From assembly GCF_055900595.2 (NCBI RefSeq), contig NZ_CM148325.1: a stretch of DNA of 64,000 bases, one strand, 5' to 3'. Numbering within the stretch: the stretch's first letter is position 1; each line of letters opens with the position of its first letter. The translations under genes and the position numbers were made by a program. Under the pieces are notes generated by a model, which worked only from the letters and a program-made list of their open reading frames with translations, was not told the DNA's origin and did no database searches. Below, in pieces: positions 1,738-58,914 of this stretch.

Positions 1738-3174
1738 ATGGCGCAGTCGAAACTCTATCCAGTTGTGATGGCAGGTGGCTCCGGTAGCCGCTTATGGCCG
1801 CTTTCCCGCGTACTTTACCCCAAGCAGTTTTTATGCCTGAAAGGCGATCTCACCATGCTGCAAACCACCATCTGCCGCCTGAACGGTGTGGAGTGCGAAA
1901 GCCCGGTGGTGATTTGCAATGAGCAGCACCGCTTTATTGTCGCGGAACAGCTGCGTCAACTGAACAAACTCACCAAGAACATTATTCTCGAACCGGCAGG
2001 GCGTAACACTGCACCTGCCATTGCGCTGGCGGCGCTGGCGGCAAAACGTCATAGCCCGGAGAGCGACCCGTTAATGCTGGTCTTGGCGGCGGATCATGTG
2101 ATTGCCGATGAAGACGCGTTCCGTGCCGCCGTGCGTAATGCCATGCCGTATGCCAAAGCGGGCAAGCTGGTGACCTTCGGCATTGTGCCGGATCTACCTG
2201 AAACCGGTTATGGCTATATTCGTCGCGGTGAAGTGTCGGAGGGTGAGCAGGATACGGTGGCCTTTGAAGTGGCGCAGTTTGTCGAAAAACCGAATCTGGA
2301 AACCGCTCAGGCCTATGTGGCAAGCGGCGAATATTACTGGAACAGCGGTATGTTCCTGTTCCGCGCCGGACGCTATCTCGAAGAACTGAAAAAATATCGC
2401 CCGGATATTCTCGATGCCTGTGAAAAAGCGATGAGCGCCGTCGATCCGGATCTCGATTTTATTCGTGTGGATGAAGAAGCGTTTCTCGCCTGCCCGGAAG
2501 AGTCGGTGGATTACGCGGTCATGGAACGTACGGCAGATGCCGTTGTGGTGCCGATGGATGCGGGCTGGAGTGATGTCGGTTCTTGGTCTTCATTATGGGA
2601 GATCAGCGCCCACACCGCCGAGGGCAACGTTTGCCACGGCGATGTGATTAATCACAAAACTGAAAACAGCTATGTGTACGCCGAATCTGGCCTGGTCACC
2701 ACCGTCGGGGTGAAAGATTTGGTGGTAGTGCAGACCAAAGATGCAGTGCTGATTGCCGACCGTAACGCGGTGCAGGATGTGAAAAAAGTGGTCGAGCAGA
2801 TCAAAGCCGATGGTCGCCATGAGCATCGGGTACATCGCGAAGTGTATCGTCCGTGGGGCAAATATGACTCTATCGACGCGGGCGACCGCTACCAGGTGAA
2901 ACGCATCACCGTGAAACCGGGCGAGGGCTTGTCGGTACAGATGCACCATCACCGCGCGGAACACTGGGTAGTGGTCGCGGGAACGGCAAAAGTCACTATT
3001 GACGGTGATATCAAACTGCTTGGTGAAAACGAGTCCATTTATATTCCGCTGGGGGCGACGCACTGCCTGGAAAACCCGGGGAAAATTCCGCTCGATTTAA
3101 TTGAAGTGCGGTCCGGCTCTTATCTCGAAGAGGATGATGTGGTGCGCTTCGCGGATCGCTACGGACGGGTGTAA
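1738..3174 (+). CDS. cpsB: Mannose-1-phosphate guanylyltransferase
   Basis: 478-aa ORF with an N-terminal nucleotidyltransferase glycine-rich motif ([15 protein letters not shown]) and a C-terminal cupin-like region; conserved wca gene order. Confidence 0.92.
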
Positions 3175-3177
3175 ACG

Positions 3178-3290
<113 letters not shown>

Positions 3291-3366
3291 CGCGGTGTAA
3301 ATAACGACAAATATAAAATTGGCCGTTTCGGTCAGGGCCAACTATTGCCTGAAAAAGGGTAACGAC

Positions 3367-4737
3367 ATGAAAAAATTAACCTGCTTTAAAGCCTATGATA
3401 TTCGTGGAAAATTAGGCGAAGAACTGAATGAAGATATTGCCTGGCGCATTGGTCGCGCTTATGGCGAATTTCTCAAACCGAAAACCATTGTGTTAGGCGG
3501 TGATGTCCGCCTCACCAGCGAAACCTTAAAACTGGCGCTGGCGAAAGGTTTACAGGATGCGGGCGTCGATGTGCTGGATATTGGCATGTCCGGCACCGAA
3601 GAGATCTATTTCGCCACGTTCCATCTCGGTGTGGATGGCGGCATTGAAGTTACCGCCAGCCATAATCCGATGGATTATAACGGCATGAAGCTGGTGCGCG
3701 AAGGGGCTCGCCCGATCAGCGGTGATACCGGACTGCGCGATGTCCAGCGTCTGGCAGAAGCCAACGACTTTCCTCCCGTTGATGAAACCAAACGCGGTCG
3801 CTATCAGCAAATCAATCTGCGTGACGCTTACGTTGATCACCTGTTCGGTTATATCAACGTCAAAAACCTCACGCCGCTCAAGCTGGTGATCAACTCCGGG
3901 AACGGCGCAGCGGGTCCGGTGGTGGACGCTATCGAAGCCCGCTTTAACGCCCTCGGCGCTCCGGTGGAATTAATCAAAGTGCACAACACGCCGGACGGCA
4001 ATTTCCCCAACGGTATTCCTAACCCGCTGCTGCCGGAATGCCGCGACGACACCCGCAATGCGGTCATCAAACACGGCGCGGATATGGGCATTGCCTTTGA
4101 TGGCGATTTTGACCGCTGCTTCCTGTTTGACGAAAAAGGGCAGTTTATCGAAGGCTACTACATTGTCGGCCTGCTGGCAGAAGCGTTCCTCGAAAAAAAT
4201 CCCGGCGCGAAGATCATCCACGATCCACGTCTCTCCTGGAACACCGTTGATGTGGTGACTGCCGCTGGCGGCACGCCGGTGATGTCGAAAACCGGACACG
4301 CCTTTATTAAAGAACGTATGCGCAAGGAAGACGCCATCTACGGTGGCGAAATGAGCGCCCACCATTACTTCCGTGATTTCGCTTACTGCGACAGCGGCAT
4401 GATCCCGTGGCTGCTGGTCGCCGAACTGGTGTGCCTGAAAGATAAAACGCTGGGCGAACTGGTACGCGACCGGATGGCGGCGTTTCCGGCAAGCGGTGAG
4501 ATCAACAGCAAACTGGCGCAACCCGTTGAGGCGATTAACCGCGTGGAACAGCATTTTAGCCGTGAGGCGCTGGCGGTGGATCGCACCGATGGCATCAGCA
4601 TGACCTTTGCCGACTGGCGCTTTAACCTGCGCTCCTCCAACACCGAACCGGTGGTGCGGTTGAATGTGGAATCGCGCGGTGATGTGCCGCTGATGGAAGC
4701 GCGAACGCGAACTCTGCTGGCGTTGCTGAACGAGTAA
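3367..4737 (+). CDS. cpsG: Phosphomannomutase
   Basis: ORF 3319..4737; start chosen at the internal [14 protein letters not shown]; phosphohexomutase active-site context (TASHNP). Confidence 0.92.
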
Positions 4738-4791
4738 TGTCGGATCTTCCCTTACCCCATTGCGGGTAAGGGGCTAATAACAGGAACAACG

Positions 4792-6186
4792 ATGACAAAT
4801 CTAAAAAAGCGCGAGCGAGCGAAAACCAATGCATCGTTAATCTCTATGGTGCAACGCTTTTCAGATATCACCATCATGTTTGCCGGACTATGGCTGGTTT
4901 GCGAAGTGAGCGGACTGTCATTCCTCTACATGCACCTGTTGGTGGCGCTGATTACGCTGGTGGTGTTCCAGATGCTGGGCGGCATCACCGATTTTTATCG
5001 CTCATGGCGCGGTGTTCGGGCAGCGACAGAATTTGCCCTGTTGCTACAAAACTGGACCTTAAGCGTGATTTTCAGCGCCGGACTGGTGGCGTTCAACAAT
5101 GATTTCGACACGCAACTGAAAATCTGGCTGGCGTGGTATGGGCTGACCAGCATCGGACTGGTGGTTTGCCGTTCATGTATTCGCATTGGGGCGGGCTGGC
5201 TGCGTAATCATGGCTATAACAAGCGCATGGTCGCGGTGGCGGGGGATTTAGCCGCCGGACAAATGCTGATGGAGAGCTTCCGTAATCAGCCGTGGTTAGG
5301 GTTTGAAGTGGTGGGTATATACCACGACCCGAAACCGGGCGGCGTTTCTAACGACTGGGCGGGCAATCTGCAACAGCTGGTCGAGGATGCGAAAGCGGGC
5401 AAGATTCATAACGTCTATATCGCGATGCAAATGTGCGACGGCGCGCGAGTGAAAAAACTGGTCCATCAACTGGCGGACACCACCTGTTCGGTGCTGCTGA
5501 TCCCCGATGTCTTTACCTTCAACATTCTCCATTCACGTCTCGAAGAGATGAACGGCGTTCCGGTGGTGCCGCTTTACGACACGCCGCTTTCCGGGGTTAA
5601 CCGCCTGCTCAAACGTGCGGAAGACATTGTGCTGGCGACGCTTATCCTGCTGCTGATCTCTCCGGTGCTGTGCTGTATTGCGCTGGCGGTGAAACTCAGT
5701 TCACCAGGACCGGTTATTTTCCGCCAGACTCGCTATGGCATGGATGGTAAACCGATCAAAGTGTGGAAGTTTCGTTCCATGAAAGTGATGGAGAACGACA
5801 AAGTCGTGACTCAGGCGACGCAGAACGATCCGCGCGTCACCAAAGTGGGGAACTTTCTGCGCCGCACCTCGCTGGATGAATTGCCGCAGTTTATCAATGT
5901 GCTGACCGGCGGGATGTCGATTGTCGGGCCACGTCCACACGCGGTGGCGCATAACGAACAGTATCGACAGCTCATTGAAGGCTACATGCTGCGCCATAAG
6001 GTGAAACCGGGCATTACCGGCTGGGCGCAGATTAACGGCTGGCGCGGCGAAACCGACACACTGGAGAAAATGGAAAAACGCGTCGAGTTCGACCTTGAGT
6101 ACATCCGCGAATGGAGCGTCTGGTTCGATATCAAAATCGTTTTCCTGACGGTGTTCAAAGGTTTCGTTAACAAAGCGGCATATTGA
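4792..6186 (+). CDS. wcaJ: Undecaprenyl-phosphate glucose phosphotransferase (colanic acid initiating transferase)
   Basis: 464-aa ORF with N-terminal TM segments and a C-terminal sugar-transferase domain (PRPHAV...GWAQING). Confidence 0.92.
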   Translation: MTNLKKRERAKTNASLISMVQRFSDITIMFAGLWLVCEVSGLSFLYMHLLVALITLVVFQMLGGITDFYRSWRGVRAATEFALLLQNWTLSVIFSAGLVAFNNDFDTQLKIWLAWYGLTSIGLVVCRSCIRIGAGWLRNHGYNKRMVAVAGDLAAGQMLMESFRNQPWLGFEVVGIYHDPKPGGVSNDWAGNLQQLVEDAKAGKIHNVYIAMQMCDGARVKKLVHQLADTTCSVLLIPDVFTFNILHSRLEEMNGVPVVPLYDTPLSGVNRLLKRAEDIVLATLILLLISPVLCCIALAVKLSSPGPVIFRQTRYGMDGKPIKVWKFRSMKVMENDKVVTQATQNDPRVTKVGNFLRRTSLDELPQFINVLTGGMSIVGPRPHAVAHNEQYRQLIEGYMLRHKVKPGITGWAQINGWRGETDTLEKMEKRVEFDLEYIREWSVWFDIKIVFLTVFKGFVNKAAY

Positions 6187-6187
6187 T

Positions 6188-7666
6188 ATGAGCTTACGTG
6201 AAAAAACCATCAGCGGCGCGAAGTGGTCGGCGATTGCCACGGTGATCATCATCGGCCTCGGGCTGGTGCAGATGACCGTGCTGGCGCGGATTATCGACAA
6301 CCACCAGTTCGGCTTGCTGACTGTGTCGCTGGTAATCATCGCGCTGGCAGATACGCTTTCTGACTTCGGTATCGCTAACTCCATTATTCAGCGAAAAGAA
6401 ATCAGTCACCTGGAACTTACCACGTTGTACTGGCTGAACGTCGGGCTGGGGCTTGTGGTGTGCGTGGCGGTGTTTTTGTTGAGTGATGCCATTGGTGACG
6501 TGCTGAATAACCCGGACCTAGCACCGTTGATTAAAACATTGTCGCTGGCGTTTGTGGTGATCCCCCACGGGCAGCAGTTCCGCGCGTTGATGCAGAAGGA
6601 GCTGGAGTTCAACAAAATCGGCATGATCGAAACCAGCGCGGTGCTGGCGGGCTTCACTTTTACGGTGGTTAGCGCCCATTTCTGGCCGCTGGCGATGACC
6701 GCGATCCTCGGTTATCTGGTCAATAGTGCGGTGAGAACGCTGCTGTTTGGCTACTTTGGTCGAAAAATTTATCGCCCCGGTCTACATTTCTCGCTGGCGT
6801 CGGTGGCACCGAACTTACGCTTTGGTGCCTGGCTGACGGCGGACAGCATCATCAACTATCTCAACACCAACCTTTCAACGCTGGTGCTGGCGCGTATTCT
6901 CGGCGCGGGCGTGGCAGGGGGCTACAACCTGGCTTACAACGTGGCCGTTGTGCCGCCGATGAAGCTGAACCCCATCATCACCCGCGTGTTATTTCCGGCA
7001 TTCGCCAAAATTCAGGACGACACCGAAAAGCTGCGCGTGAACTTCTACAAGCTGCTGTCGGTGGTGGGGATTATCAACTTTCCGGCGCTGCTCGGGCTGA
7101 TGGTGGTGTCGAATAACTTTGTACCGCTGGTCTTTGGTGAGAAGTGGAACAGCATTATTCCGGTGCTGCAATTGCTGTGTGTGGTGGGTCTGCTGCGTTC
7201 CGTAGGTAACCCGATTGGTTCGCTGCTGATGGCGAAAGCGCGGGTCGATATCAGCTTTAAATTCAACGTATTCAAAACCTTTCTGTTTGTTCCGGCGATT
7301 GTTATTGGTGGGCAGATGGCGGGCGCAATCGGCGTCACGCTCGGTTTCCTGTTGGTGCAGATTATCAACACCATTCTGAGTTACTTCGTGATGATTAAAC
7401 CGGTTCTTGGTTCCAGTTATCGCCAGTACATCCTGAGTTTGTGGCTGCCGTTTTATCTCTCGCTGCCGACGCTGGTGGTCAGTTATGTGCTGGGCATTGT
7501 GCTGAAAGGGCAACTGGCGCTGGGGATGCTGCTGGCGGTGCAAATAGCCGCGGGCGTGCTGGCGTTTGTGGTGATGATTGTGCCGTCGCGCCATCCGCTG
7601 GTGGTGGAAGTGAAGCGTCAGTTTTGTCGCAGCGAAAAAATGAAAATGCTTTTACGGGCGGGGTGA
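6188..7666 (+). CDS. wzxC: Colanic acid flippase (Wzx-type)
   Basis: 492-aa polytopic membrane ORF in the conserved position after wcaJ. Confidence 0.9.
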   Translation: MSLREKTISGAKWSAIATVIIIGLGLVQMTVLARIIDNHQFGLLTVSLVIIALADTLSDFGIANSIIQRKEISHLELTTLYWLNVGLGLVVCVAVFLLSDAIGDVLNNPDLAPLIKTLSLAFVVIPHGQQFRALMQKELEFNKIGMIETSAVLAGFTFTVVSAHFWPLAMTAILGYLVNSAVRTLLFGYFGRKIYRPGLHFSLASVAPNLRFGAWLTADSIINYLNTNLSTLVLARILGAGVAGGYNLAYNVAVVPPMKLNPIITRVLFPAFAKIQDDTEKLRVNFYKLLSVVGIINFPALLGLMVVSNNFVPLVFGEKWNSIIPVLQLLCVVGLLRSVGNPIGSLLMAKARVDISFKFNVFKTFLFVPAIVIGGQMAGAIGVTLGFLLVQIINTILSYFVMIKPVLGSSYRQYILSLWLPFYLSLPTLVVSYVLGIVLKGQLALGMLLAVQIAAGVLAFVVMIVPSRHPLVVEVKRQFCRSEKMKMLLRAG

Positions 7667-27996: not shown

Positions 27997-30074
<2,078 letters not shown>

Positions 30075-44634: not shown

Positions 44635-44805
44635 TTCCTGAACTTCAGAATCATCTTGCTGCTGCTTCGATTCAGCAAGGATAAAGGGTATGATAGTGAA
44701 AAGGGATAAAAGCATTGTCATCTGCGGCAGCTATGAGTAATGTTGGCCCTAACGAATAGCGGTTGCTTAAACGAATCCGACTCTCACATTATCAGGGGTA
44801 TAAAA

Positions 44806-45135
44806 ATGGAAACTACCAAGCCTTCATTCCAGGACGTACTGGAATTTGTTCGTCTGTTCCGTCGTAAGAACAAACTGCAACGTGAAATTCAGGACGTTGA
44901 GAAAAAGATCCGTGACAACCAGAAGCGCGTCCTGTTGCTGGACAACCTGAGCGATTACATCAAGCCAGGGATGAGCGTTGAAGCAATCCAGGGCATCATC
45001 GCCAGCATGAAAGGTGACTATGAAGATCGCGTTGACGATTACATCATCAAAAATGCCGAGCTCTCCAAAGAACGCCGCGATATCTCCAAAAAGCTGAAAG
45101 CTATGGGCGAAATGAAAAACGGCGAAGCGAAGTAA
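44806..45135 (+). CDS. yeeX: UPF0265 family protein YeeX
   Basis: ORF 44740..45135; start taken at [14 protein letters not shown] (109 aa). Confidence 0.88.
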
Positions 45136-45235
45136 TTCCCGTTTTATTCAATGAGGGTTGCTCGGCAACCCTCATTGCTCATTGATTCTTATCTGTGTAT
45201 CACCGTCATCATTCTCATCTGAGAACCAATCGAAA

Positions 45236-45418
45236 TTAACAACAGCCTTCTTCTGTATGCAGCAAGGCAAAAAGTTCTGTAACTCCATTGTTATTAACTG
45301 CACTGGTTACTAACACGTTGTGCGCTCCAGCTTCCCGTAACCAACTTTTCACCAAAGATATTTGTTCCATGCTGGCTAAATCTGCTTTGGTTACTACTCC
45401 AATGACCGGGTGATTCAT
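45236..45418 (-). pseudogene. Putative EutP/PduV-like GTPase C-terminal fragment
   Basis: The C-terminal 60 aa of ORF 45236..45592 (MNHPVIGVVTKADLA...GVTELFALL) resemble a EutP/PduV C-terminus; the N-terminal part of that ORF is antisense to an IS remnant and is likely spurious. Confidence 0.35.
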
Positions 45419-45474
45419 GGCCCGGTAGGGCGTTTTTACCTCTAATTCCTGCTTCAGCGCTGAGATTCCTGCTT

Positions 45475-45648
45475 GTTGCCGGAAAAGCAGGCACCTGCCG
45501 TCTGAACGGTATCGATCCGGAAGCGTATCTGCGCCATATTCTGAGCATACTGCCGGAATGGCCCTCCAACCGTGTTGACGAACTCCTGCCATGGAACGTA
45601 GTTCTCACCAATAAATAAGCGTCAATACGGTGCTCCGTTGACGCTTAC
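45475..45648 (+). mobile_element. IS66-family element remnant (3-prime end: transposase C-terminal fragment plus terminal inverted repeat)
   Basis: Plus-strand translation ...CRLNGIDPEAYLRHILSILPEWPSNRVDELLPWNVVLTNK* parallels the C-terminus of the intact IS66 transposase at 56160..57731 (…[30 protein letters not shown]…); terminus ...accgtattgac...cgcttac matches the IS66 end at 56130. Confidence 0.6.
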
Positions 45649-46032
45649 TTTAATCCGTTTTCTGAGCTTAGATTTTTCTGTTCCTACCCAGACCGTGGAT
45701 TTGGAATTCATTTTTTGTCAGGTCAATGCTAATCGTTAAAACGGCCATAACGCACCTCCACTGGAAGGTTTATCAGTAATATCCTACCGTTGCTTCATGG
45801 TCGGGGCGTCCATTCCATTATTATCGGTTTTCCTTTCTGTTTATAAATGAAAACGCCAGCTGTATTCAGGCTGGCGTCAGGGGAAATGAAGCCTGTTGAG
45901 TGAGATTCACCGCTTCTGGTGCAGAAGCTGCAGATGGCGCAGGGTAAGGACATCTTCTCTTGCCTGCTTAATACAGGACAACAGTGCTGTTTCTGTGGTT
46001 AATGGCACTATACCCTGCATCACTGCATTGTC

Positions 46033-46227
46033 TTACAGCAACTGGTGAGGGCTGGCATAAGTTGCCGGTGTTTCGGTAGAGTCACGGTCATCCACCACGC
46101 GGAGTGAATAACCTTTTTCAGCGGCCTTATTAATCAGTTCAGTGATATTAACACCATCAATGTCAACGACAATGTGCCCCATATCCAGCGCCTGTACGTT
46201 AACGCTGTCGGCTTCCAGTGTCATCAT
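46033..46227 (-). CDS. yeeW: CP4-44-type island protein YeeW
   Basis: 64-aa ORF MMTLEADSVNVQALDMGH...; start overlaps the cbtA stop (ATGA). Confidence 0.75.
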   Translation of the reverse strand: MMTLEADSVNVQALDMGHIVVDIDGVNITELINKAAEKGYSLRVVDDRDSTETPATYASPHQLL

Positions 46228-46597
46228 TTCGCCTCCGGATACTTACCCAGGGTAATGTTATTTACCGTTCTGTAATTGTCGCGGGTCATCAGGCCGGTCG
46301 CCCTGCGAGCCCGGAGGATATCGATGCTGTTTATTAACTGAGAGCGGGTACAGGCGCTGAATCCCGGCTGGTCGGTAGCACCAGCGCGTATTTTTCCACG
46401 AGAAAGTTCACCGCATCACACAGTGAAATGCCTGCCTCAATATGCTGCTCAATCACACGTTCATCGGCAAAAGGTGTGTCATTCAGTGTGAGGCCATAGT
46501 GCTGGTCCAGCAGTCGGGACAGCAGTATCTGCCAGATTTCAACAGGAGACGGGCGAGAACTGGTCGCCTGCCCGGGTAATACAGGTAATGTTTTCAT
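46224..46597 (-). pseudogene. cbtA: CbtA (YeeV) type IV toxin, frameshifted
   Basis: N-terminal 73 aa in ORF 46334..46597 ([10 protein letters not shown]...VEKYALV); the C-terminal part (…LMTRDNYRTVNNITLGKYPEAK*) is readable in another frame; total span is 374 nt, not a multiple of 3; apparent 1-bp deletion near 46377. Confidence 0.7.
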
Positions 46598-46685
46598 ACT
46601 GAAGATTTTCCTGATATGCAGATATAAAAATGGAAAAGTGGCGTGGTGAAAACACCAGGCCGTAGCAGAAGGCTATTCTGGAGAG

Positions 46686-47054
46686 TTAATTTTTCATTTC
46701 GGGCGTCGGATAAACAGCCAGATAAACGTAACCACAACTGCTGAGGGTATCGGCTTTGCAGGTCAGCCCTTTTGCATACAGCGTGACGGTATGCTGATGG
46801 CGGGGATTCAGTTCACCGCTGGTGAGCATGAGTTCCAGTTGTTTCATCAGCAGCGGAAAGGCCTGGTCCAGGTGGTACGCATCTGCATCGCTGAACAGGC
46901 CTCTGATACCGGCGCGGTCGGCAAGGTAATGCAACCGGTTACCCTCCTGCACCAGACGTGCCCCGAAACAGGGCGTCACGGTGCAGGGCAGCCCCCACCA
47001 GGGGCGGTCGTGATTGTCGTCGGGAAGTGTTGTCCCGGGGAGTGTGTCTGACAC
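46686..47054 (-). CDS. cbeA: CbeA (YeeU) antitoxin of the CbtA/CbeA system
   Basis: 122-aa ORF MSDTLPGTTLPDDNHDRPWWGLPCTVTPCFGARLVQEG...; apparently intact. Confidence 0.88.
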   Translation of the reverse strand: MSDTLPGTTLPDDNHDRPWWGLPCTVTPCFGARLVQEGNRLHYLADRAGIRGLFSDADAYHLDQAFPLLMKQLELMLTSGELNPRHQHTVTLYAKGLTCKADTLSSCGYVYLAVYPTPEMKN

Positions 47055-50751: not shown

Positions 50752-51822
50752 TTATTTAATCCGGGCCATCGCGTTTCTCAGTGCCAAATCTGCCTCTTCC
50801 GTTATATCCAGGCTTTTCTGCAATACCGCCTCTGACCGGGTCAGTGCCTGACGTGCTGCCAGCGGTTTCCGGATATGCTCCATCGCCAGCATCGTGTCTT
50901 CATAGCCCTGCTGACGCCAGGCGTCGGTATGTGCCGATGTAAAACTGAGCAGACCGCCGCTGTTGCCACCATCACCTGCATATTTCAGCCTTTTCCGGGG
51001 ACGGATCTCAAGGATTGTGGTGTCCGGAAAAGCCTGGCGATCCCATAAAGAACCGTCACTCAGATGCGTCACAATCACCATATTGCATCCGGCATCGACC
51101 AGAGGTGTCACAGGGGTATTTCCCTGCATATTTCGCCATCCTCCCATACCACCATCACCGAACATTGTCCCCTGAACCTCACGGGGACGGAACAGCAGGG
51201 GCAGCGCGGCTGACGCAAGCAGAGCCTCTTTCTGCTGTCCGCGGGGCAGGCTCTGGATATGCTGAAAAACGGCGTTTTTCGTGGTTCCGACACCCAGTTC
51301 AGCACGAATGCAGTCAATAATATCCTGCATGCCCCCTTCTGTGGGGTACAGCGACACATACAGCGGTAGCCCGTCTGCCAGAGCATCAGTATCAAGATAA
51401 TGATCCATCAGCGCTGTCAGGGGTTCATCTGACAACAACGGCTGAGCCATCAGATTGTCAAACCCGTTGATTGTCGATATATGGCGAAGAAGCGTCGTAA
51501 GCAGTGCTCCTGCACGTCCGGGGATCTGGCAGAGGTTCATTGCCTGGAACAATTTTTTCAGCAATGAAAAGTAAACCAATCTGTTTACCGACAGCACCTG
51601 ATTATTCCCCAGATGATCCCAGAGCGCCTCCAGGCGTACGGCAGCTTCTGACAGATCGGGAGAGGCCACGATAATGGCACCATTGAATGCGCCAATGCTG
51701 GCCCCTGAAACCATGCTGATCTGTGTACCACACTCTGCCAGTGCCTTAACCACTCCCGCCTGATAAGCGCCCACCGCCCCGCCACCGGACAGCACCAGCC
51801 CCGTTTTCATTTCTGTACTCAT
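50752..51822 (-). CDS. Patatin-like phospholipase
   Basis: 356-aa ORF with a Gly-rich oxyanion motif (SGGGAVGAYQAG), GxSxG nucleophile (GASIG) and DGG catalytic Asp motif (FGDGGMGG); start overlaps the upstream gene stop. Confidence 0.85.
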   Translation of the reverse strand: MSTEMKTGLVLSGGGAVGAYQAGVVKALAECGTQISMVSGASIGAFNGAIIVASPDLSEAAVRLEALWDHLGNNQVLSVNRLVYFSLLKKLFQAMNLCQIPGRAGALLTTLLRHISTINGFDNLMAQPLLSDEPLTALMDHYLDTDALADGLPLYVSLYPTEGGMQDIIDCIRAELGVGTTKNAVFQHIQSLPRGQQKEALLASAALPLLFRPREVQGTMFGDGGMGGWRNMQGNTPVTPLVDAGCNMVIVTHLSDGSLWDRQAFPDTTILEIRPRKRLKYAGDGGNSGGLLSFTSAHTDAWRQQGYEDTMLAMEHIRKPLAARQALTRSEAVLQKSLDITEEADLALRNAMARIK

Positions 51823-52724
51823 GCAGCCCCCTTCTGAAATATTTCATCGACCATACTTTCAGAGAGGCGTTCTGCAGAGCAGAGGCGAGGCATGCGAACC
51901 GGTAAGTGTTCTGCAGCCTGCGTGGTTGACCAGATCACCGGATGCTGCTCTTCACTGCACCAGTCTCCCAGCCAGTTAATCGCGTCATGCCACTCGTTAT
52001 CTGCCTGCTCCCGGCCCTGACCACCAAGCCAGTCCAGAGTGTTCAGACGCACGGTTGCACTACCGCCACTCTCCTGTGCCATCTGCGTTAATGCTTTATG
52101 TCTGAGAATATCCAGTAGCTGGTTAACCTGGCCTGTTTCGCTCTGACGTATCACATCACCAAACGCGCCCCAGCGAAGCTCTTCAAGTGCCACATAACAA
52201 CGTCCGGCAGGGGAAAATGACGCATATCGCCCGGCGCTCCACCATGAGAATATCTGCTCAAGATGTAACTGCGCCCGCTGAACCTGGTCAACACGGTGGA
52301 GTTTTTCTTCAAGATGATTCAGTTTATGGTGAACCTGATCGGCCAGGGTGAGTAACTGCTCCCGCGTATCTGCGGAATAATGCGCCAGCCTGGCTGTATC
52401 ACTGACCAGTGAACTGACCCTGTCGTTTACCCGGGTAATCGCGTAGTTTGTGGTGGCAAGTGACGTTGTCATCTCCGTCAGCCAGCGCAGGGACGCCTCA
52501 ACGCCCTGTGCAAGCGACGCATTGATGGCATTCTGCCGTGCAGCGCCTTCGCCGGTCAGCCCCTCTTTTAAACGCCGGAAGAACGTGCGCTCTCCGGCCG
52601 TGCGGATATGCTCCTGTGCAACATCGATTCCGTTTGCGAAATCAACCACAAATTTTTCAGGAAGACAGGTGAGTACCTGACATACCCGGTTATCAGCAAT
52701 TTGTTGAATAAATGGTGAAGTCAC
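51819..52724 (-). CDS. Hypothetical protein, predicted helical, no recognisable domain
   Basis: 301-aa ORF whose start and stop overlap the dynamin-like and patatin-like genes by 4 bp each. Confidence 0.7.
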   Translation of the reverse strand: MTSPFIQQIADNRVCQVLTCLPEKFVVDFANGIDVAQEHIRTAGERTFFRRLKEGLTGEGAARQNAINASLAQGVEASLRWLTEMTTSLATTNYAITRVNDRVSSLVSDTARLAHYSADTREQLLTLADQVHHKLNHLEEKLHRVDQVQRAQLHLEQIFSWWSAGRYASFSPAGRCYVALEELRWGAFGDVIRQSETGQVNQLLDILRHKALTQMAQESGGSATVRLNTLDWLGGQGREQADNEWHDAINWLGDWCSEEQHPVIWSTTQAAEHLPVRMPRLCSAERLSESMVDEIFQKGAA

Positions 52725-55117
52725 AGCATTGTCTCCAGCTCTTCCCTCAGCGCCTTACTGTCAGTAATGAGCTCAGGAACCCTTTCATTTAATGCCTGAA
52801 GTCGCCCGGTAAGTCGTTCCTGCGCCTGCTGATCGCGTTTATGATCTTCAGAGCTCTGAATCAGCGTGTTACGCAGTTGTTCAACTTTCTCCCTGAATGC
52901 GCAGAAAAAGGCATCGATTTCCTGGCGGACGGGCTGGTTAATATCCTGCTCAATGGATGCCTGCAGCTCCCCGAAATATGCCCGGGTCAGTGACATAACT
53001 TCCTCTCTGACCTTGTTGATATTGATCACGCTGCGACTCACATCCTCGTCATAGTTTTCCCAGCCCAGGTCACTGGTGCCAAACCATCGACAAACGGTTC
53101 CCCATACGCCACTCTGCCGACGGCGACGGGTGACGGTCTCCGTTCTTTCCTCCATAAGCGCACTCAGATTTATTTTTACCGCGAGCCGGGTCTGTAACTG
53201 GCTGACTGCCGGAAAACTGATTTTTACGGTAAAGCCCTCATCCTCCAGGCGGGCATTGATGCGACCGGCAATGTTTTCTGTGGCGTACAGGGCCGTGCCA
53301 CGAAAACCTGTTTCAATCCCGCTGACGATTTTCTCCAGCTCAGGCCGGAACTGTGCTTCAGCCTCACGGTGCAGGCTGGTCACGGTCGATTCGATTTGCG
53401 TCATCAGTTCAAGGGCTTCCCTGCGATCACTGAATTTTATTTCGGGGCTGTCCGGGGCAAAATCTCGTTTCCTGTAATCCTCCCGGCCCTGGTTGTTGAT
53501 ACCGGACCATTGAGAAATTTTCCCCCATAATCCGGACTGAGACCTTCGTTGTTCTGCGTCTTCTTCCTCCAGCATTTGCTGTTCTTTGCGTTTACCGCTT
53601 CTGAAATAGTCATTCAGCTCCTCTTCCAGTGAGGTGCAGACCCCCGTCAGTAATTCCCGGGTTTTAGTATCGATCTCCTCCATGGCCATTCTGACATCAG
53701 TGGTCATCTGCTCCTGACAGTCCGCGATTTCCCGGATATCCGCAAGCAGGCTGGTGATATGCGACTGCAGTGACTGAATGCTTTGCTGTAGCCCCTGATG
53801 GCGTAACAACAGGTATTCACTGATATTTTCTGCATTCTGCATCAGTTTTGCGGCGGCAGAGTCAACCGCCAGTGCCGCAGCTCTGGAATGTGAGCTCTGT
53901 ATGACTTCCGTTATCAGTTGATCGATAAGTGAGCCTTCCCACAGGTCTGTCGCCCCTTCAGTTGCCAGTTCACTGTCTTTACAGACGTATTCTTTTTTCA
54001 TGCAACCGAAGGCACCTCTGATAAAATCATCGACCCAGGCTTCATCAACAGGAAGGGTTCCGTTTTTCCGTAACTCATGAAGCGCACGGTTAGCCAGGTA
54101 TGCCTGGCGTGAGGATCCGGGATAAACGCGGGAGGCGGGCAGCACATTGCTGTTCAGCATTGCCGGAACTTTCTGGCGTACGGCATCTGCCCCATCGCCA
54201 TTGCGGTCTTTCTCATCAAATTTATTGACCAGTACAAACAGGCGGCCGGCTGATACGTCAGCAATGGCATTAAGCTCTTTACGGACGTCTTCATCCGCTT
54301 TTGAGTTCATCTGTGTGTAATCCATCACAGCCAGAACCGCAGAGGCTTTCTGCAGTTGATCCCGCATCATCACTTCCATCTGCGGTTGTCCGGCCTCATT
54401 AGGGCCGGGGGTATCCAGCAGTGTGAGTGTTCCCTGGCATGCATCCATCCCCACCAGATGGCTGAATTCCACGTCGATCACCGGCAGTTTCTGCACTTCT
54501 GCGTATTCATCAAAAGGAAATTCAGTCCCCATTGCCGCAGCAAGACGAACCAGATCGTTTAACGATGCCAGTCCGGTAAAGATTTCCTCCTCCCCGTGGT
54601 ATTCATTTTTGAGCCAGCCATCATCCGTCAGAATATCCAGCAGTTCGCGGGTATCCCCGGTTTGCTGCAGGGTCTGTGCGACCTGCTGTCCTGCCGGGGT
54701 GGCGAGTTTTTCCTGCAGTGTGATTAATAAATTGCGGACAGGCTGAATATGTTCCAGATGGAGAACCGGCTCAGTTTTTCCGGGAACGTGGCGGATGAGC
54801 GTCGGTACAGAGGTCATGGGGCGGTTACGGTTAGGCAGAATTTCCTGCCCCACAATGGCGTTGATGGTGGTTGATTTGCCTGCTTTCATCGTGCCGACAA
54901 CAGCCAGCACCATCTCCCTGCGGGCGGTTTTGATTTGTTCGCCCTCCAGCTCCTCAATTCTTTTCAGTGCTTTCTGTTTATCAAAAAGCAGTCTGTTTTC
55001 GTTCTTACTGTCAGATAACACATCTGGCTCCTCAACCATTTGCCGGAGCAGATTAATGTTCAGTTGCAAAAGTCGGTCGGCTTCATCACAAAGCAGGGCG
55101 ATGTTCTTTTCGTGCAT
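52721..55117 (-). CDS. Bacterial dynamin-like large GTPase
   Basis: 798-aa ORF with G1 P-loop GTMKAGKST (aa 75-83), G3 DTPG (aa 235-238), G4 NKFD (aa 298-301), and a long helical C-terminal half with two repeated RxQSG.WG...W motifs. Confidence 0.85.
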   Translation of the reverse strand: MHEKNIALLCDEADRLLQLNINLLRQMVEEPDVLSDSKNENRLLFDKQKALKRIEELEGEQIKTARREMVLAVVGTMKAGKSTTINAIVGQEILPNRNRPMTSVPTLIRHVPGKTEPVLHLEHIQPVRNLLITLQEKLATPAGQQVAQTLQQTGDTRELLDILTDDGWLKNEYHGEEEIFTGLASLNDLVRLAAAMGTEFPFDEYAEVQKLPVIDVEFSHLVGMDACQGTLTLLDTPGPNEAGQPQMEVMMRDQLQKASAVLAVMDYTQMNSKADEDVRKELNAIADVSAGRLFVLVNKFDEKDRNGDGADAVRQKVPAMLNSNVLPASRVYPGSSRQAYLANRALHELRKNGTLPVDEAWVDDFIRGAFGCMKKEYVCKDSELATEGATDLWEGSLIDQLITEVIQSSHSRAAALAVDSAAAKLMQNAENISEYLLLRHQGLQQSIQSLQSHITSLLADIREIADCQEQMTTDVRMAMEEIDTKTRELLTGVCTSLEEELNDYFRSGKRKEQQMLEEEDAEQRRSQSGLWGKISQWSGINNQGREDYRKRDFAPDSPEIKFSDRREALELMTQIESTVTSLHREAEAQFRPELEKIVSGIETGFRGTALYATENIAGRINARLEDEGFTVKISFPAVSQLQTRLAVKINLSALMEERTETVTRRRRQSGVWGTVCRWFGTSDLGWENYDEDVSRSVININKVREEVMSLTRAYFGELQASIEQDINQPVRQEIDAFFCAFREKVEQLRNTLIQSSEDHKRDQQAQERLTGRLQALNERVPELITDSKALREELETML

Positions 55118-55379: not shown

Positions 55380-56129
55380 CTAGTCACGGACGGCGCGCAG
55401 AACCGTGCGTGCAACAGAGGCAATGCAGACGCTCTCCGCCGTGTCAAATATCCGGTCCACCGCACCGGTAAACTGTTCACGGGCCTGAGACCGGACAGAC
55501 TCCGTGCGCAGCTCGTCCTGCAGGCGGGTCATCAGGGGACTGGCGGCATGGTCGGGAAGTGCTGTCATGAGCGCACTGACCAGCGTATCCAGTTCCCAGC
55601 CGGTGCGGGCCGATACGGCAACAACCCGATGTACGGGCCGGAACAGACGGAATACCGCCTCCGTTTTTTCGCGAATGTTCTGTGCCTGTGCGGGAGAAGG
55701 CTGAATACCGGCCATATCCCATTCATGGCAGGGCTCCGTTTTATCGGCCTGCATCACCACAAACAGTACCCGCTGATGTCCCCGGTGCAGGATGTGTCGC
55801 CAGAAATACTCATCCACAGACAGGGCACGGTCATCGGCTTTAATCAGCCACAGTACCAGGTCCAGTTCGAGCAGAATGTCACGGTACAGGGCTTCATACT
55901 CTGCATCCCTGTCCCGGCTCTCGCCCACCCCGGGCAGGTCAGTGATAACCATGCTGTGACCATGGCCATTCAGACGGAAGCGCTGCACTTCCCGGGGGCC
56001 GGCGTGAACATCACTGACCGGGGTGACCTCCCCCTGAAACAGCGCATTACAGAGTGAGGATTTACCGGCCCCGCTTTTACCCATAATGCCAGGCACGGGT
56101 TCGTGACTGGTGAGTTTGCGCAGATGTTC
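55380..56129 (-). pseudogene. YeeP/YfjP/YkfA-type small GTPase, 3-prime portion, disrupted by IS66 insertion
   Basis: ORF 55380..56096 (P-loop GIMGKSGAGKSSL, DLPG); the reading frame continues upstream to the IS boundary; the 5-prime portion lies beyond the IS. Confidence 0.75.
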
Positions 56130-56159
56130 GTAAGCGACTCGTCAGAACCGTATTGATAT

Positions 56160-57731
56160 TTACTGAGAGCTCAGATCAACTTTCCAGGGCAACAGATCGC
56201 GTACCCGGTTTGCCGGCCAGTCCTGGATATGTTCAATGACGTAACGCAGCCACTTTTCTGGCTCCACATTGTTCAGACGGCATGTGCCGATCAGCGAGTA
56301 CAACACCGCCGCATGTTCACCACCGCTGTCGGAACCCGCGAACATCCAGTTTTTCCGGCCTACGGCCACTCCCCGTAAGGCGTTCTCTGCGATGTTGTTG
56401 TCGATTTCCACCCAGCCATTACTGCAGTACACGTTCAGTGCATCCCACTGTTTCAGCAGGTATGCGAACGCTTTTGCCGTATCTGAGTGACGCGACAGTG
56501 TTTTCATCTGTTGCTGTATCCAGTCATACAGTGACTGCATCAGTGGCGCGGCTCTGGCTTTTCTTGCCGCCAGACGCTGTTCTGCTGAACAGCCCCGGAC
56601 CTCTGCCTCGATGGCATACAGTTCACCGATACGCTGCAGGGCTTCCGTGGTGATGTAGGTGGGCGCTCTTGCATGCACATCGTGGATTTTTCTCCGGGCA
56701 TGAGCCATACACGCGGCTTCCGTTATTCTGCCGGATTCGTATAACGCCCGGTAACCACCGTAAGCATCGGCCTGAAGCACACCGCTGTAACCGGCCAGGT
56801 GATTTTGTGGATGGATACCTTTCCGGTCCGGACTGTACGCGAACCAGACCGCCGGGGGCATCTGTGAACCGGCGTTACGGTCATCACGGACGTAGACCCA
56901 CAGCCGGGCTGTCCGGGTTTTACCGCTGCCCGGCTCCTGGACCGGGACGGGGATATCATCAGCATGGACTTTACCGGGCATCAGCACATACTGGCGCAGG
57001 ACGTCATACAGCGGCTCCAGCAGTTCAGCAACAGCACCTGTCCAGCGCCCCAGTGTGGCACGGCTCAGCTCCACTCCCTGACGACGGTATATTTCTGACT
57101 GGCGGTATAACGGCAGATGGTCTGCATATTTCCCGGTGACAACATGGGCCAGAAGCCCCGCTCCGGCATAACTGCGTGCAATGGGTTTTGAAGGTACTGG
57201 TGCCTGCACGATATGGTCGCACCGGCAACAGGCCTGTTTCGGACGTTGTGTTTCGATAACCTTAAAGGCGCTGCTGATAAGCTCCAGTTGCTCTGACACA
57301 TCACATCCCAGAGAACTGAGTTCACCACCACAGGCAGGACAGCATTCCTCTTCCGGCCGGATAACCCGGGTTTCACGGGGAAGTGAGGCCGGTAACGGTT
57401 TACGGGCTGAAGACTGGCGCAGGGCGGATGGCAGTACCGGGTCATATTGCTCACCCAGCGTTTCCGCCATTTCTTCCTGAAGTGCGCTGATTCGCTCCTG
57501 TGCTTCCTGTATCTGCCGTTCGGTTTTTGCACGAAGTTTTTCTGAGCTTTTACCGAACTGCATACGTTGCAGTTTCGCAACCAGCGCCTTCAGCCGGTTG
57601 ATTTCGGAAGCATAAGCCGCCACCCGCTGTGAGAGCAGGCGGTTGTATTCAGCCATCTGGCGGATGGTGTCCTGTTGCGTCTGCAACAGTGCCCGCAGGC
57701 GGGCGTTCTCATGAGCAAGTGAGGTGTCCAT
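56160..57731 (-). CDS. IS66-family transposase (orfC)
   Basis: 523-aa ORF with N-terminal coiled coil, zinc-finger-like CxxC pair and the typical C-terminus. Confidence 0.88.
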
Positions 57732-57750
57732 ATCCTCACTTTACAACGGG

Positions 57751-58098
57751 TTATATGCGGATTCCAGCGCGTTCCGTTCGTTTCGGGTGCTTCCAGTTGA
57801 TACCTTCAAGAAGCATGGATAACTGAGCCGGAGTAAGGTGCACCTTGCCGTCACGGGTGACTGGCCAGACGAAGCGGCCCCGCTCCAGGCGTTTGGTGAA
57901 GAGGCACAGTCCGTCACTGTCAGCCCACAACACTTTTATCTGGTCACCCCGGCGTCCGCGGAAGATGAACAGGTGTCCGGAGAACGGGTCATCCTTCAGG
58001 ACGTTCTGAACTTTTGATGCCAGGCCGTTAAAGCCATTTCGCATATCGGTGATACCTGCAACCAGCCAGATACGCGAACCTGCAGGGAGAGATATCAT
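57751..58098 (-). CDS. IS66-family accessory protein TnpB (orfB)
   Basis: 115-aa ORF directly upstream of orfC. Confidence 0.85.
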   Translation of the reverse strand: MISLPAGSRIWLVAGITDMRNGFNGLASKVQNVLKDDPFSGHLFIFRGRRGDQIKVLWADSDGLCLFTKRLERGRFVWPVTRDGKVHLTPAQLSMLLEGINWKHPKRTERAGIRI

Positions 58099-58775
58099 CA
58101 GTGGCTGCTCCCTTTTATTTCGCGGATAAGTGTCTGTAATAACGCCGGCGTCAGTTTACCTTTAAGCCTGAGAGTTCCGGCCGGCAGAACCAGCTCACAA
58201 CACAGACTGTCGGACGGTGTATTTATCCGCTCTGGTTCCTGTGCGGGGGCCGGGATTTTATTATCCGGCTCCGGCGTTAACGTCACGGGAAGCAGTGCCG
58301 GCATATTTTTTCCGGAAGGCAGCAGGCCACCTTTCCGGTATTGATGGCGCCAGTTGAAGAGCAGGTTATCGTTGATTCCGTTTTCCCGGGCGATCTGCGC
58401 CACACAGGCTCCGGGCTGCAGTGACTGCTCCACTAAGGCGATTTTAAACTCATAAGGGAAGTTGGGCCGCCGGGGACGTTTTTTTACCACGGGGGCTTCG
58501 GATATAACGGTGCTTTCAGGACGTACGACTGGTACCGTGGAAAATTGTCCGTAAAGGCAGGCATCAAGTTCCTGCTCCGACATGCCTGCGGGCAAAGGCC
58601 ACGAAAGGCCAGCTCTCCGAAAGCGCACGAACATACTACAAACTGTTGATTTTGGTACACCCAGGCGACGCCCGGCCACAACCCGGGGTAAATGTTCTTC
58701 AAAGTGAAGACGTAAAGCTTCAGTGATCCAGGTCCGGTGTTTCATACGATAGTGTCCATTAAAAATGATGGACAT
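58098..58775 (-). CDS. IS66-family orfA (HTH protein), possibly with an N-terminal extension
   Basis: 225-aa ORF; the C-terminal two thirds resemble IS66 orfA; true start may be internal. Confidence 0.7.
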   Translation of the reverse strand: MSIIFNGHYRMKHRTWITEALRLHFEEHLPRVVAGRRLGVPKSTVCSMFVRFRRAGLSWPLPAGMSEQELDACLYGQFSTVPVVRPESTVISEAPVVKKRPRRPNFPYEFKIALVEQSLQPGACVAQIARENGINDNLLFNWRHQYRKGGLLPSGKNMPALLPVTLTPEPDNKIPAPAQEPERINTPSDSLCCELVLPAGTLRLKGKLTPALLQTLIREIKGSSH

Positions 58776-58826
58776 TATTTTTGTAGAGCCGGAGGAAACA
58801 GACCAGACGGTTTAAATGAGCCGGTT

Positions 58827-58914
58827 ACAGATGTTCCAGGATGTGACGGGAAAGTGAGTAAGGCAGGGAGGAGAGCGGTTTTTCAATTGCCTCAATGGCA
58901 TCAGACGGATTCAT
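58827..58914 (-). pseudogene. YeeP/YfjP-type small GTPase, 5-prime portion (N-terminal about 29 codons)
   Basis: Minus-strand reading MNPSDAIEAIEKPLSSLPYSLSRHILEHL runs into the IS66 target duplication and continues in frame after the IS (RKLTSHEPVPGIMGKSGAGKS...). Confidence 0.5.

Follow-up and report, generated by a model that had tools for sequence, protein, structure and literature searches.

Beside yeeX, at one edge of a genomic island, lies a fragment of an IS66-type transposase, and an intact element of the same family is found 10.5 kb away. This raises the question whether the two sequences form a pair that can rearrange the DNA between them, or whether the fragment is the relic of older events. 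The question was investigated in the window, which here means the whole analysed stretch of 64,000 nucleotides (contig NZ_CM148325.1 of assembly GCF_055900595.2), and by comparison with complete E. coli genomes. We read the locus, with a probability of about 90%, as a multi-layered, non-functional scar at the yeeX/tmaR edge of a cobU/CP4-44-type island, marked by the loss of the pdu operon, an IS110 relic, an ISEc23 insertion and a deletion. The IS names used (ISEc23, given as 'IS66-like element ISEc23 family', and ISCro1) are PGAP labels in RefSeq. The following features of the window are concerned:

44807-45135: yeeX/tmaR, preceding the hairpin
45149-45177, plus strand: perfect stem-loop with a 13-bp stem behind yeeX/tmaR, where tmaR and pduV' converge
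45236-45418, minus strand: pduV', the last 60 codons and stop of the propanediol-utilisation GTPase gene pduV (Pfam PduV-EutP)
45236-45592, minus strand: chimeric 118-aa ORF, yoeF of K-12, running antisense through the ISEc23 stump, then through the 71-nt piece and then through pduV'
45419-45489: 71-nt piece, the end on the yeeX side of a 1.4-kb segment with a degenerate IS110-family pseudogene; the segment continues in 533 genomes
45490-45648, plus strand: ISEc23 stump, the last 159 bp of an IS66-family element
45490-45618, plus strand: tnpC' within the stump, 42 codons and stop, the pseudogene yoeD of K-12
45619-45648, plus strand: 30-bp non-coding terminus of the stump with the right inverted repeat ending CGCTTAC
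45649-45748, minus strand: 5' end of the degenerate IS110-family pseudogene (MAVLTISIDLTKNEFQIHGLGRNRKI, then a stop), cut by the ISEc23 insertion
56130-58828, minus strand: intact ISCro1-type IS66-family element of 2699 bp (PGAP label ISCro1 family)
58775-58098, minus strand: tnpA of ISCro1, ORF of 225 aa
58098-57751, minus strand: tnpB of ISCro1, ORF of 115 aa
57731-56160, minus strand: tnpC of ISCro1, ORF of 523 aa with all four IS66 Pfam domains

The ISEc23 remnant and its locus

Translation of 45490-45618 on the plus strand gives the 42 aa GTCRLNGIDPEAYLRHILSILPEWPSNRVDELLPWNVVLTNK, followed by a stop. The Pfam family DDE_Tnp_IS66_C (PF13817) was matched by this peptide with E=5.8e-16 and 58.8 bits, compared with a cutoff of 30. 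The preliminary description had reported the last 45 aa or so of an IS66 transposase; the fragment is present, but its length is 42 aa. The terminus behind it ends ...GTTGACGCTTAC exactly at 45648. Its reverse complement (45619-45648) reads GTAAGCGTCAACGGAGCACCGTATTGACGC, and the terminal inverted repeat starts with GTAAGCG at the tip of the element. For comparison, an intact ISEc23 of 2541 bp was taken from plasmid NZ_AP022162, where it is flanked by the 8-bp duplication GTTAATTT. It ends on the same base as the stump, so that the terminal repeat ending in cgcttac had been read correctly. The stump is identical to it at 158 of 159 positions, including the last 42 tnpC codons and the terminal repeat. 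The matches to the stump on plasmids are elements labelled ISEc23 by PGAP, and the homology begins abruptly at 45490. Together, the Pfam match and the identity to ISEc23 bear out an IS66-end remnant at the yeeX-proximal island edge.

Of the 2541 bp of an intact copy, the stump has kept only the 159 bp at the right end. The left end, tnpA, tnpB, the catalytic domain and the target duplication are missing. Hence, the stump is a fragment of an IS66-family member and not a functional member. As the stump has a single end, only 42 codons of tnpC and neither tnpA nor tnpB, it is unable to transpose.

The locus is already known. Over 45100-45700 (601 nt) the window is 99.5% identical to K-12 MG1655, in which 45490-45618 (plus strand) is annotated as yoeD (b4642) and 45592-45236 (minus strand) as yoeF (b4538). 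The annotated right end of the cryptic prophage CP4-44 of K-12 maps to position 45419 of the window. In thousands of genomes PGAP annotates here a 'transposase domain-containing protein, incomplete' and an 'EutP/PduV family microcompartment system protein'. The stump was found in the same context in at least 3171 of 5426 complete E. coli genomes, among them K-12, SE15, O157:H7 and IAI39. In CFT073, pduV' and the 71 nt are matched at 100% over 290 nt, and the transposase fragment is annotated there by PGAP as well. From 45649 onwards, TTTAATCC... leads into a DUF957 fragment, yeeW, cbtA, cbeA and the remainder of the CP4-44-type island. The stump is ancient and widespread, and the locus, annotated as yoeD/yoeF, is an inert, ordinary scar. 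In the literature on yoeD and yoeF, the only relevant entry found was the listing of yoeF in a survey of the y-ome (PMC11551758).

Two related islands can be compared. The CP4-44 edge of K-12 is the same locus; the interior of the K-12 island has flu/Ag43 and yeeR, whereas the window has a module of dynamin-family, RdcB-family and patatin-like genes and the ISCro1 insertion. PAI-cobU (GI-cobU) of ExPEC strains, e.g. PAI-CFT073-cobU, occupies the same chromosomal site and is catalogued as an island between cobU and yeeX (PMC7545054). It differs in its cargo, which consists of Hma and the Fbp system in ExPEC and of the dynamin/RdcB/patatin-like module in the window.

Layers of the scar

The island edge was examined regarding the DNA that surrounds the stump. 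The fragment had been described as following directly after the yeeX hairpin. The hairpin exists at 45149-45177, and the 71-nt stretch 45130-45200 containing it folds with -23 kcal/mol (z = -4.9); a simple terminator scan did not flag it because no T-run follows. However, what comes directly after it is the pduV fragment. This fragment encodes MNHPVIGVVTKADLAS...HTEEGCC and matches Pfam PduV-EutP with E=5.9e-13 over profile positions 86-142 of 143. The N-terminal P-loop half, with GPSQCGKTS in the full-length orthologue, is missing, so that no complete PduV/EutP domain is left. The EutP/PduV-like sequence suspected on the strand opposite to the transposase fragment is therefore real, but its homology (45236-45418) adjoins the stump and does not lie opposite to it. 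Only the ORF of yoeF runs antisense through the stump, and PGAP calls only the 60-aa PduV part of this ORF.

In the pdu-positive strain E50, a full pduV of 147 aa lies between pduU and tmaR, in the same place and orientation as pduV'. It is followed by pduU...pduA, pduF, pocR, a cobalamin riboswitch and cobUST. The homology of the window to pduV of E50 stops at 45418. At the cobU side, the K-12 sequence in front of this gene agrees with the pdu-positive arrangement only up to position 28604 of the E50 locus. From the homology breaks on both sides it follows that the island replaced about 17.5 kb of pdu/pocR DNA and left pduV' behind. Accordingly, pduV' is the orthologous 3' end of pduV, cut off at about codon 88 of 147 and left over from the lost pdu operon; it differs from pduV of the pdu operon, a member of the PduV/EutP small GTPase family, by the lack of the nucleotide-binding half, and the remaining operon is gone. 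The boundary between ancestral and island DNA is 45418/45419, a break within pduV. The placement of the remnant at the island edge by yeeX thus holds, but the boundary itself lies 71 nt before the stump. This places the true edge of the cobU/CP4-44 island and documents the island as a replacement of the pdu operon.

In pdu-positive E. coli (E50, locus positions 28433-29263) the cbi genes are absent, and a cobalamin riboswitch and a 145-aa 'hypothetical protein' are found between pocR and cobU. In ETEC1730 and EC01440, the DNA just before cobU encodes a partial 'cobalamin biosynthesis protein'. These remains may be cbi remnants.

E. coli KCTC 2571 has no island at this site (its locus 6037-6395); pduV' is joined directly to the DNA upstream of cobU, with an overlap of 4 nt at the junction, and pduV' is homologous only up to window position 45409. 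The breakpoints lie just inside the ancestral flanks kept by island-bearing strains, 9 nt deep at one end and about 108 nt deep at the other. This strain was rejected as an 'empty site', since both of its flanks have lost ancestral bases that are still present where the island is. The missing bases point to a later or separate deletion, and KCTC 2571 looks like a secondary deletion of the whole island.

For the 71 nt between pduV' and the stump, partial matches among the genomes were listed, and two classes were informative, those ending exactly at 45489 and those starting exactly at 45649. In EC01440, YZMc17-1 and MLI106K4 the 71 nt are followed by a further 1311 nt, up to ...GGGAACG, and then directly by TTTAATCC (45649 of the window). 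Altogether 533 genomes show tmaR, pduV', the 71 nt, the 1311 nt and then TTTAATCC... without interruption. The 71 nt are all that is left of the distal side of this 1.4-kb segment, and they occur in a single copy per genome.

The 1311-nt segment contains a minus-strand gene annotated by PGAP as 'IS110 family transposase, frameshifted; internal stop' (EC01440, YZMc17-1). The conceptual translation of the full pseudogene matched DEDD_Tnp_IS110 with E=5e-6 and 26.8 bits at a cutoff of 29, and the 26-aa piece in the window gave no Pfam match on its own. The putative assignment of the relic to the IS110 family is thus based on the PGAP label and on a Pfam match slightly below the cutoff. The first codons of the pseudogene, MAVLTISIDLTKNEFQIHGLG..., are retained in the window at 45748-45649, where 98.7% identity to the start of the IS110-labelled CDS in EC01440 and YZMc17-1 was measured. 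The target of ISEc23, TTTAATCC, corresponds to 45649-45656.

The 71 nt may be part of the IS110-type relic or of its flank. On neither strand was similarity to ISEc23 or ISCro1 beyond shuffle level detected, and the 47-kb pdu-positive locus gave no match. The 71 nt show no obvious coding, and they fold with z = 0.13. For the region before the IS110-like start the folding value was z = -2.3, put down by eye to one terminator-like hairpin. In neither case did folding point to a structured RNA, for instance a bridge RNA. An Rfam scan of 44700-46300 yielded no match.

An exact 24-mer scan with the 71 nt, using one genome per species, found one contig only, JADFIX010000334.1 of a 'Planctomycetota' MAG. 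Positions 1-405 of this 5.5-kb contig are 99.5% identical to E. coli yeeX-pduV' (window 45056-45460), and its remainder looks unrelated and richer in G+C. The assembly is chimeric or contaminated, and because of this stretch of E. coli DNA the contig was rejected as uninformative about the source of the 71 nt.

These identities, breakpoints, orientations, target duplications and population counts were observed directly, and the following history would account for them. The ancestral order was probably tmaR, the pdu operon (pduV...pduA), pocR and cobUST. Island DNA would then have replaced about 17.5 kb, from about codon 88 of pduV to just upstream of cobU, leaving the last 60 pduV codons (45236-45418). 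The yeeX-side end of the island presumably bore an IS110-family transposase gene that was already decayed. Near the start of this pseudogene an ISEc23 of the IS66 family would have inserted at TTTAATCC. A single blunt deletion of about 3.7 kb, comprising 2382 bp of ISEc23, the 8-bp left target copy and the 1311 bp of the IS110-like segment, may finally have joined the 71 nt (45419-45489) to the last 159 bp of ISEc23 (45490-45648). No microhomology was found at the junction 45489/45490.

The direction of change, from the uninterrupted IS110 form to the stump form, is not in doubt. A chimeric query for the intermediate, with a full ISEc23 at TTTAATCC and the IS110-like segment, found it in none of the 5426 genomes. 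Hence, we infer the order of events, and the last step as one deletion, as the most economical path. Seven near-matches to this query were rejected, as they are independent ISEc23 insertions at other sites.

Independent insertions of IS66-family elements were found in the same small region in other strains: ISEc23 in C288 (duplication GACATTAT) and in H10407, and ISEc22 in MLI106K4 (duplication TACAAATC). In NR1441 a full ISEc23 is freshly inserted in pduV' with the duplication TTATTAAC (its locus 2928-5817).

The layers of the scar also bear on yoeF. It is annotated as a CDS in K-12, where it counts among the uncharacterised genes in the y-ome survey (PMC11551758), and its ORF is open both in K-12 and in the window. 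It could therefore be regarded as a real gene, encoding a new protein in which the C-terminus of PduV is fused to a new N-terminal sequence. We regard this as very unlikely. Only residues 57-112 match a family (Pfam PduV-EutP), and this part is without the P-loop half of PduV. The N-terminal 56 residues consist of antisense ISEc23 and relic DNA and match no family, and PGAP passes over them and calls only the 60-aa part. Furthermore, in the 533 genomes of the ancestral type another chimeric ORF, 121 aa long, takes its place in the annotation; thus, the N-terminus of yoeF changes with the scar and is not conserved. Judged from its sequence, yoeF is a chance ORF with no support beyond being open, which is a reason to treat it as a non-gene, stitched together by chance from the tail of pduV, the 71 nt and antisense ISEc23. 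The biological weight of such a dead scar is small. Its value is one of bookkeeping and of a cleaner account of how the scar was formed.

The stump and the intact ISCro1-type element

The element at 56130-58828 has the features of the IS66 family, namely tnpA-tnpB-tnpC, imperfect terminal repeats and an 8-bp target duplication. The perfect duplication AGATGTTC flanks it at 56122-56129 and 58829-58836. A yeeP-like GTPase gene is interrupted by the insertion in its 5' part.

Over its whole length, the stump can be aligned with the corresponding terminus of ISCro1 (positions 2540-2699 of 2699). The alignment score of 58 compares with 17.3 +/- 2.2 for 500 dinucleotide shuffles (z = 18.5), which supports the proposed homology between the remnant and the intact element 10.5 kb away. 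The core ACCGTATTGA, earlier noticed at the stump end and at the end of the element starting at 56130, does occur at both ends. Together with GTAAGCG it is common to the two terminal repeats, which agree at 20 of the first 30 positions. The nucleotide sequences are 68% identical over 167 nt, the longest run without a mismatch being 12 nt, and the full-length transposases (TnpC) of ISEc23 and ISCro1 are 51% identical. A repeat search detected the two sequences solely in inverted orientation, with 75% complementarity over 44 nt. Stump and ISCro1 are thus homologous but belong, in the PGAP naming, to different IS species. They have in common the family, the gene order, the start of the repeat, the core and the homologous C-terminal domain of TnpC. 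They differ in that ISCro1 is a separate IS species from the ISEc23 of the stump, lies in opposite orientation and occupies this spot in only a handful of genomes. The insertion of ISCro1 is a recent, strain-specific event, unrelated to the stump.

As true homologues with aligned cognate ends that flank a toxin-antitoxin/antirestriction block, the two sequences might act as dispersed repeats, and homologous recombination between them might delete or invert this block, as the preliminary description proposed. This is extremely improbable. The stump lies on the plus strand and ISCro1 on the minus strand, and in this inverted orientation the DNA between them could not be deleted by homologous exchange. 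In E. coli, exchange by RecA reportedly needs a minimal processing segment of about 23-27 bp of perfect match (Shen and Huang, 1986). Measured against an uninterrupted stretch of at least about 25 bp, the longest run of 12 nt at 68% identity is far below the minimum. The target duplication AGATGTTC is undamaged, which indicates that ISCro1 has not recombined with another copy since its insertion.

Rearranged relatives were looked for with a synthetic inversion junction, composed of 45300-45648 and the reverse complement of 55880-56129. In none of the 5426 complete E. coli genomes was this query covered at 80% or more. The junction of the GTPase gene with ISCro1 was covered at 80% or more in 17 of the 5426 genomes; a match in a single piece was given by DSM 103246 only (98.9% identity), where ISCro1 is found at apparently the same site. 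Of the genomes that carry an IS66-family element at the GTPase gene, three were inspected (DSM 103246, ETEC1730 and EC21Z-151), and all three are colinear with the window. Direct orientation, a sufficient run of identity and rearranged relatives, as expected for dispersed repeats that recombine by RecA, are therefore all lacking for this pair. From the colinear genomes and the absence of inversion junctions it follows that the position of the stump beside an intact IS66-type element is a coincidence. Stump and ISCro1 are not a recombination pair, and the suggestion that they could promote deletion or inversion is not supported. More generally, an intact IS does not necessarily turn a nearby remnant from its own family into a recombination hazard; identity at the species level and orientation should be checked first.

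A rearrangement could also be brought about by the transposase. The window holds a complete ISCro1 with tnpA, tnpB and tnpC, and its TnpABC might cross-recognise the lone terminal repeat of the stump, of which the start and the core are shared, and pair it with one of its own ends, resulting in an adjacent inversion or deletion, similar to inside-end events in composite transposons. We give this hardly any credit. The transposases are only 51% identical, the repeats differ at one third of the first 30 positions, and the facing ends at 45648 and 56130 point at each other, which is not the geometry of a mobile unit. The junction search in the 5426 genomes, too, found no rearranged genome. Cross-recognition between IS66 species is not known to occur.

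In EC21Z-151 an ISEc23 copy is inserted at the GTPase gene, and this copy and the stump form inverted repeats of about 98% identity at a distance of about 10.6 kb. It is conceivable, although unlikely, that in strains with ISEc23 beside the yeeP-like GTPase gene the stump and this copy serve as a low-frequency inversion switch of the whole block. If so, the toxin-antitoxin, antirestriction and dynamin/patatin block would be inverted, and the idea of an inversion would hold for a subset of E. coli, but not for this window, to which only the improbable cross-recognition of the stump repeat by the ISCro1 transposase would apply as an unusual reading.

In NR1441 the right end of the new ISEc23 lies 199 bp upstream of the old stump, and the two right ends are 358 bp apart. 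New element and stump are in direct orientation and about 97% identical over 159-161 bp. Unlike the pair in the window, they would constitute a real substrate for a small deletion.

Further observations on the island

The 5' zone of the yeeP-like GTPase gene (56000-56260 and 58829-58900) carries IS66-family insertions in several strains, all in the same orientation. Besides ISCro1 in the window and in DSM 103246 at apparently the same site, ISCro1 was found about 130 nt away in ETEC1730, ISEc23 in EC21Z-151, and other IS66-family tnpC genes at about 92% identity in several strains. The IS66 family may have a target-site preference for this zone.

At 45850-45880 on the minus strand, a GC-rich hairpin with a U-rich tract behind it (GACGCCAGCC...GCUGGCGUUUUCAUUU) was noticed downstream of yeeW and the DUF957 fragment. 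It is likely the intrinsic terminator of the minus-strand operon of the island; the simple terminator scan missed it.

The toxin gene cbtA at 46334-46700 (minus strand) has an ORF of only 87 aa, compared with a cbtA of 375 bp in other strains. In M160133, which is identical to the window over 45136-46032, PGAP marks cbtA as 'frameshifted', and cbtA of the window looks frameshifted as well. The antitoxin gene cbeA at 46686-47054 is intact.

Three genes at 50752-55117 (minus strand) encode a dynamin-family protein of 798 aa, an RdcB-family protein of 301 aa and a patatin-like phospholipase of 356 aa. PADLOC gave only weak matches for this module (LeoBC with 8.8e-5, phospholipase effector with 5e-4). 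By their predicted families, these genes could form a module of defence type or for membrane remodelling.
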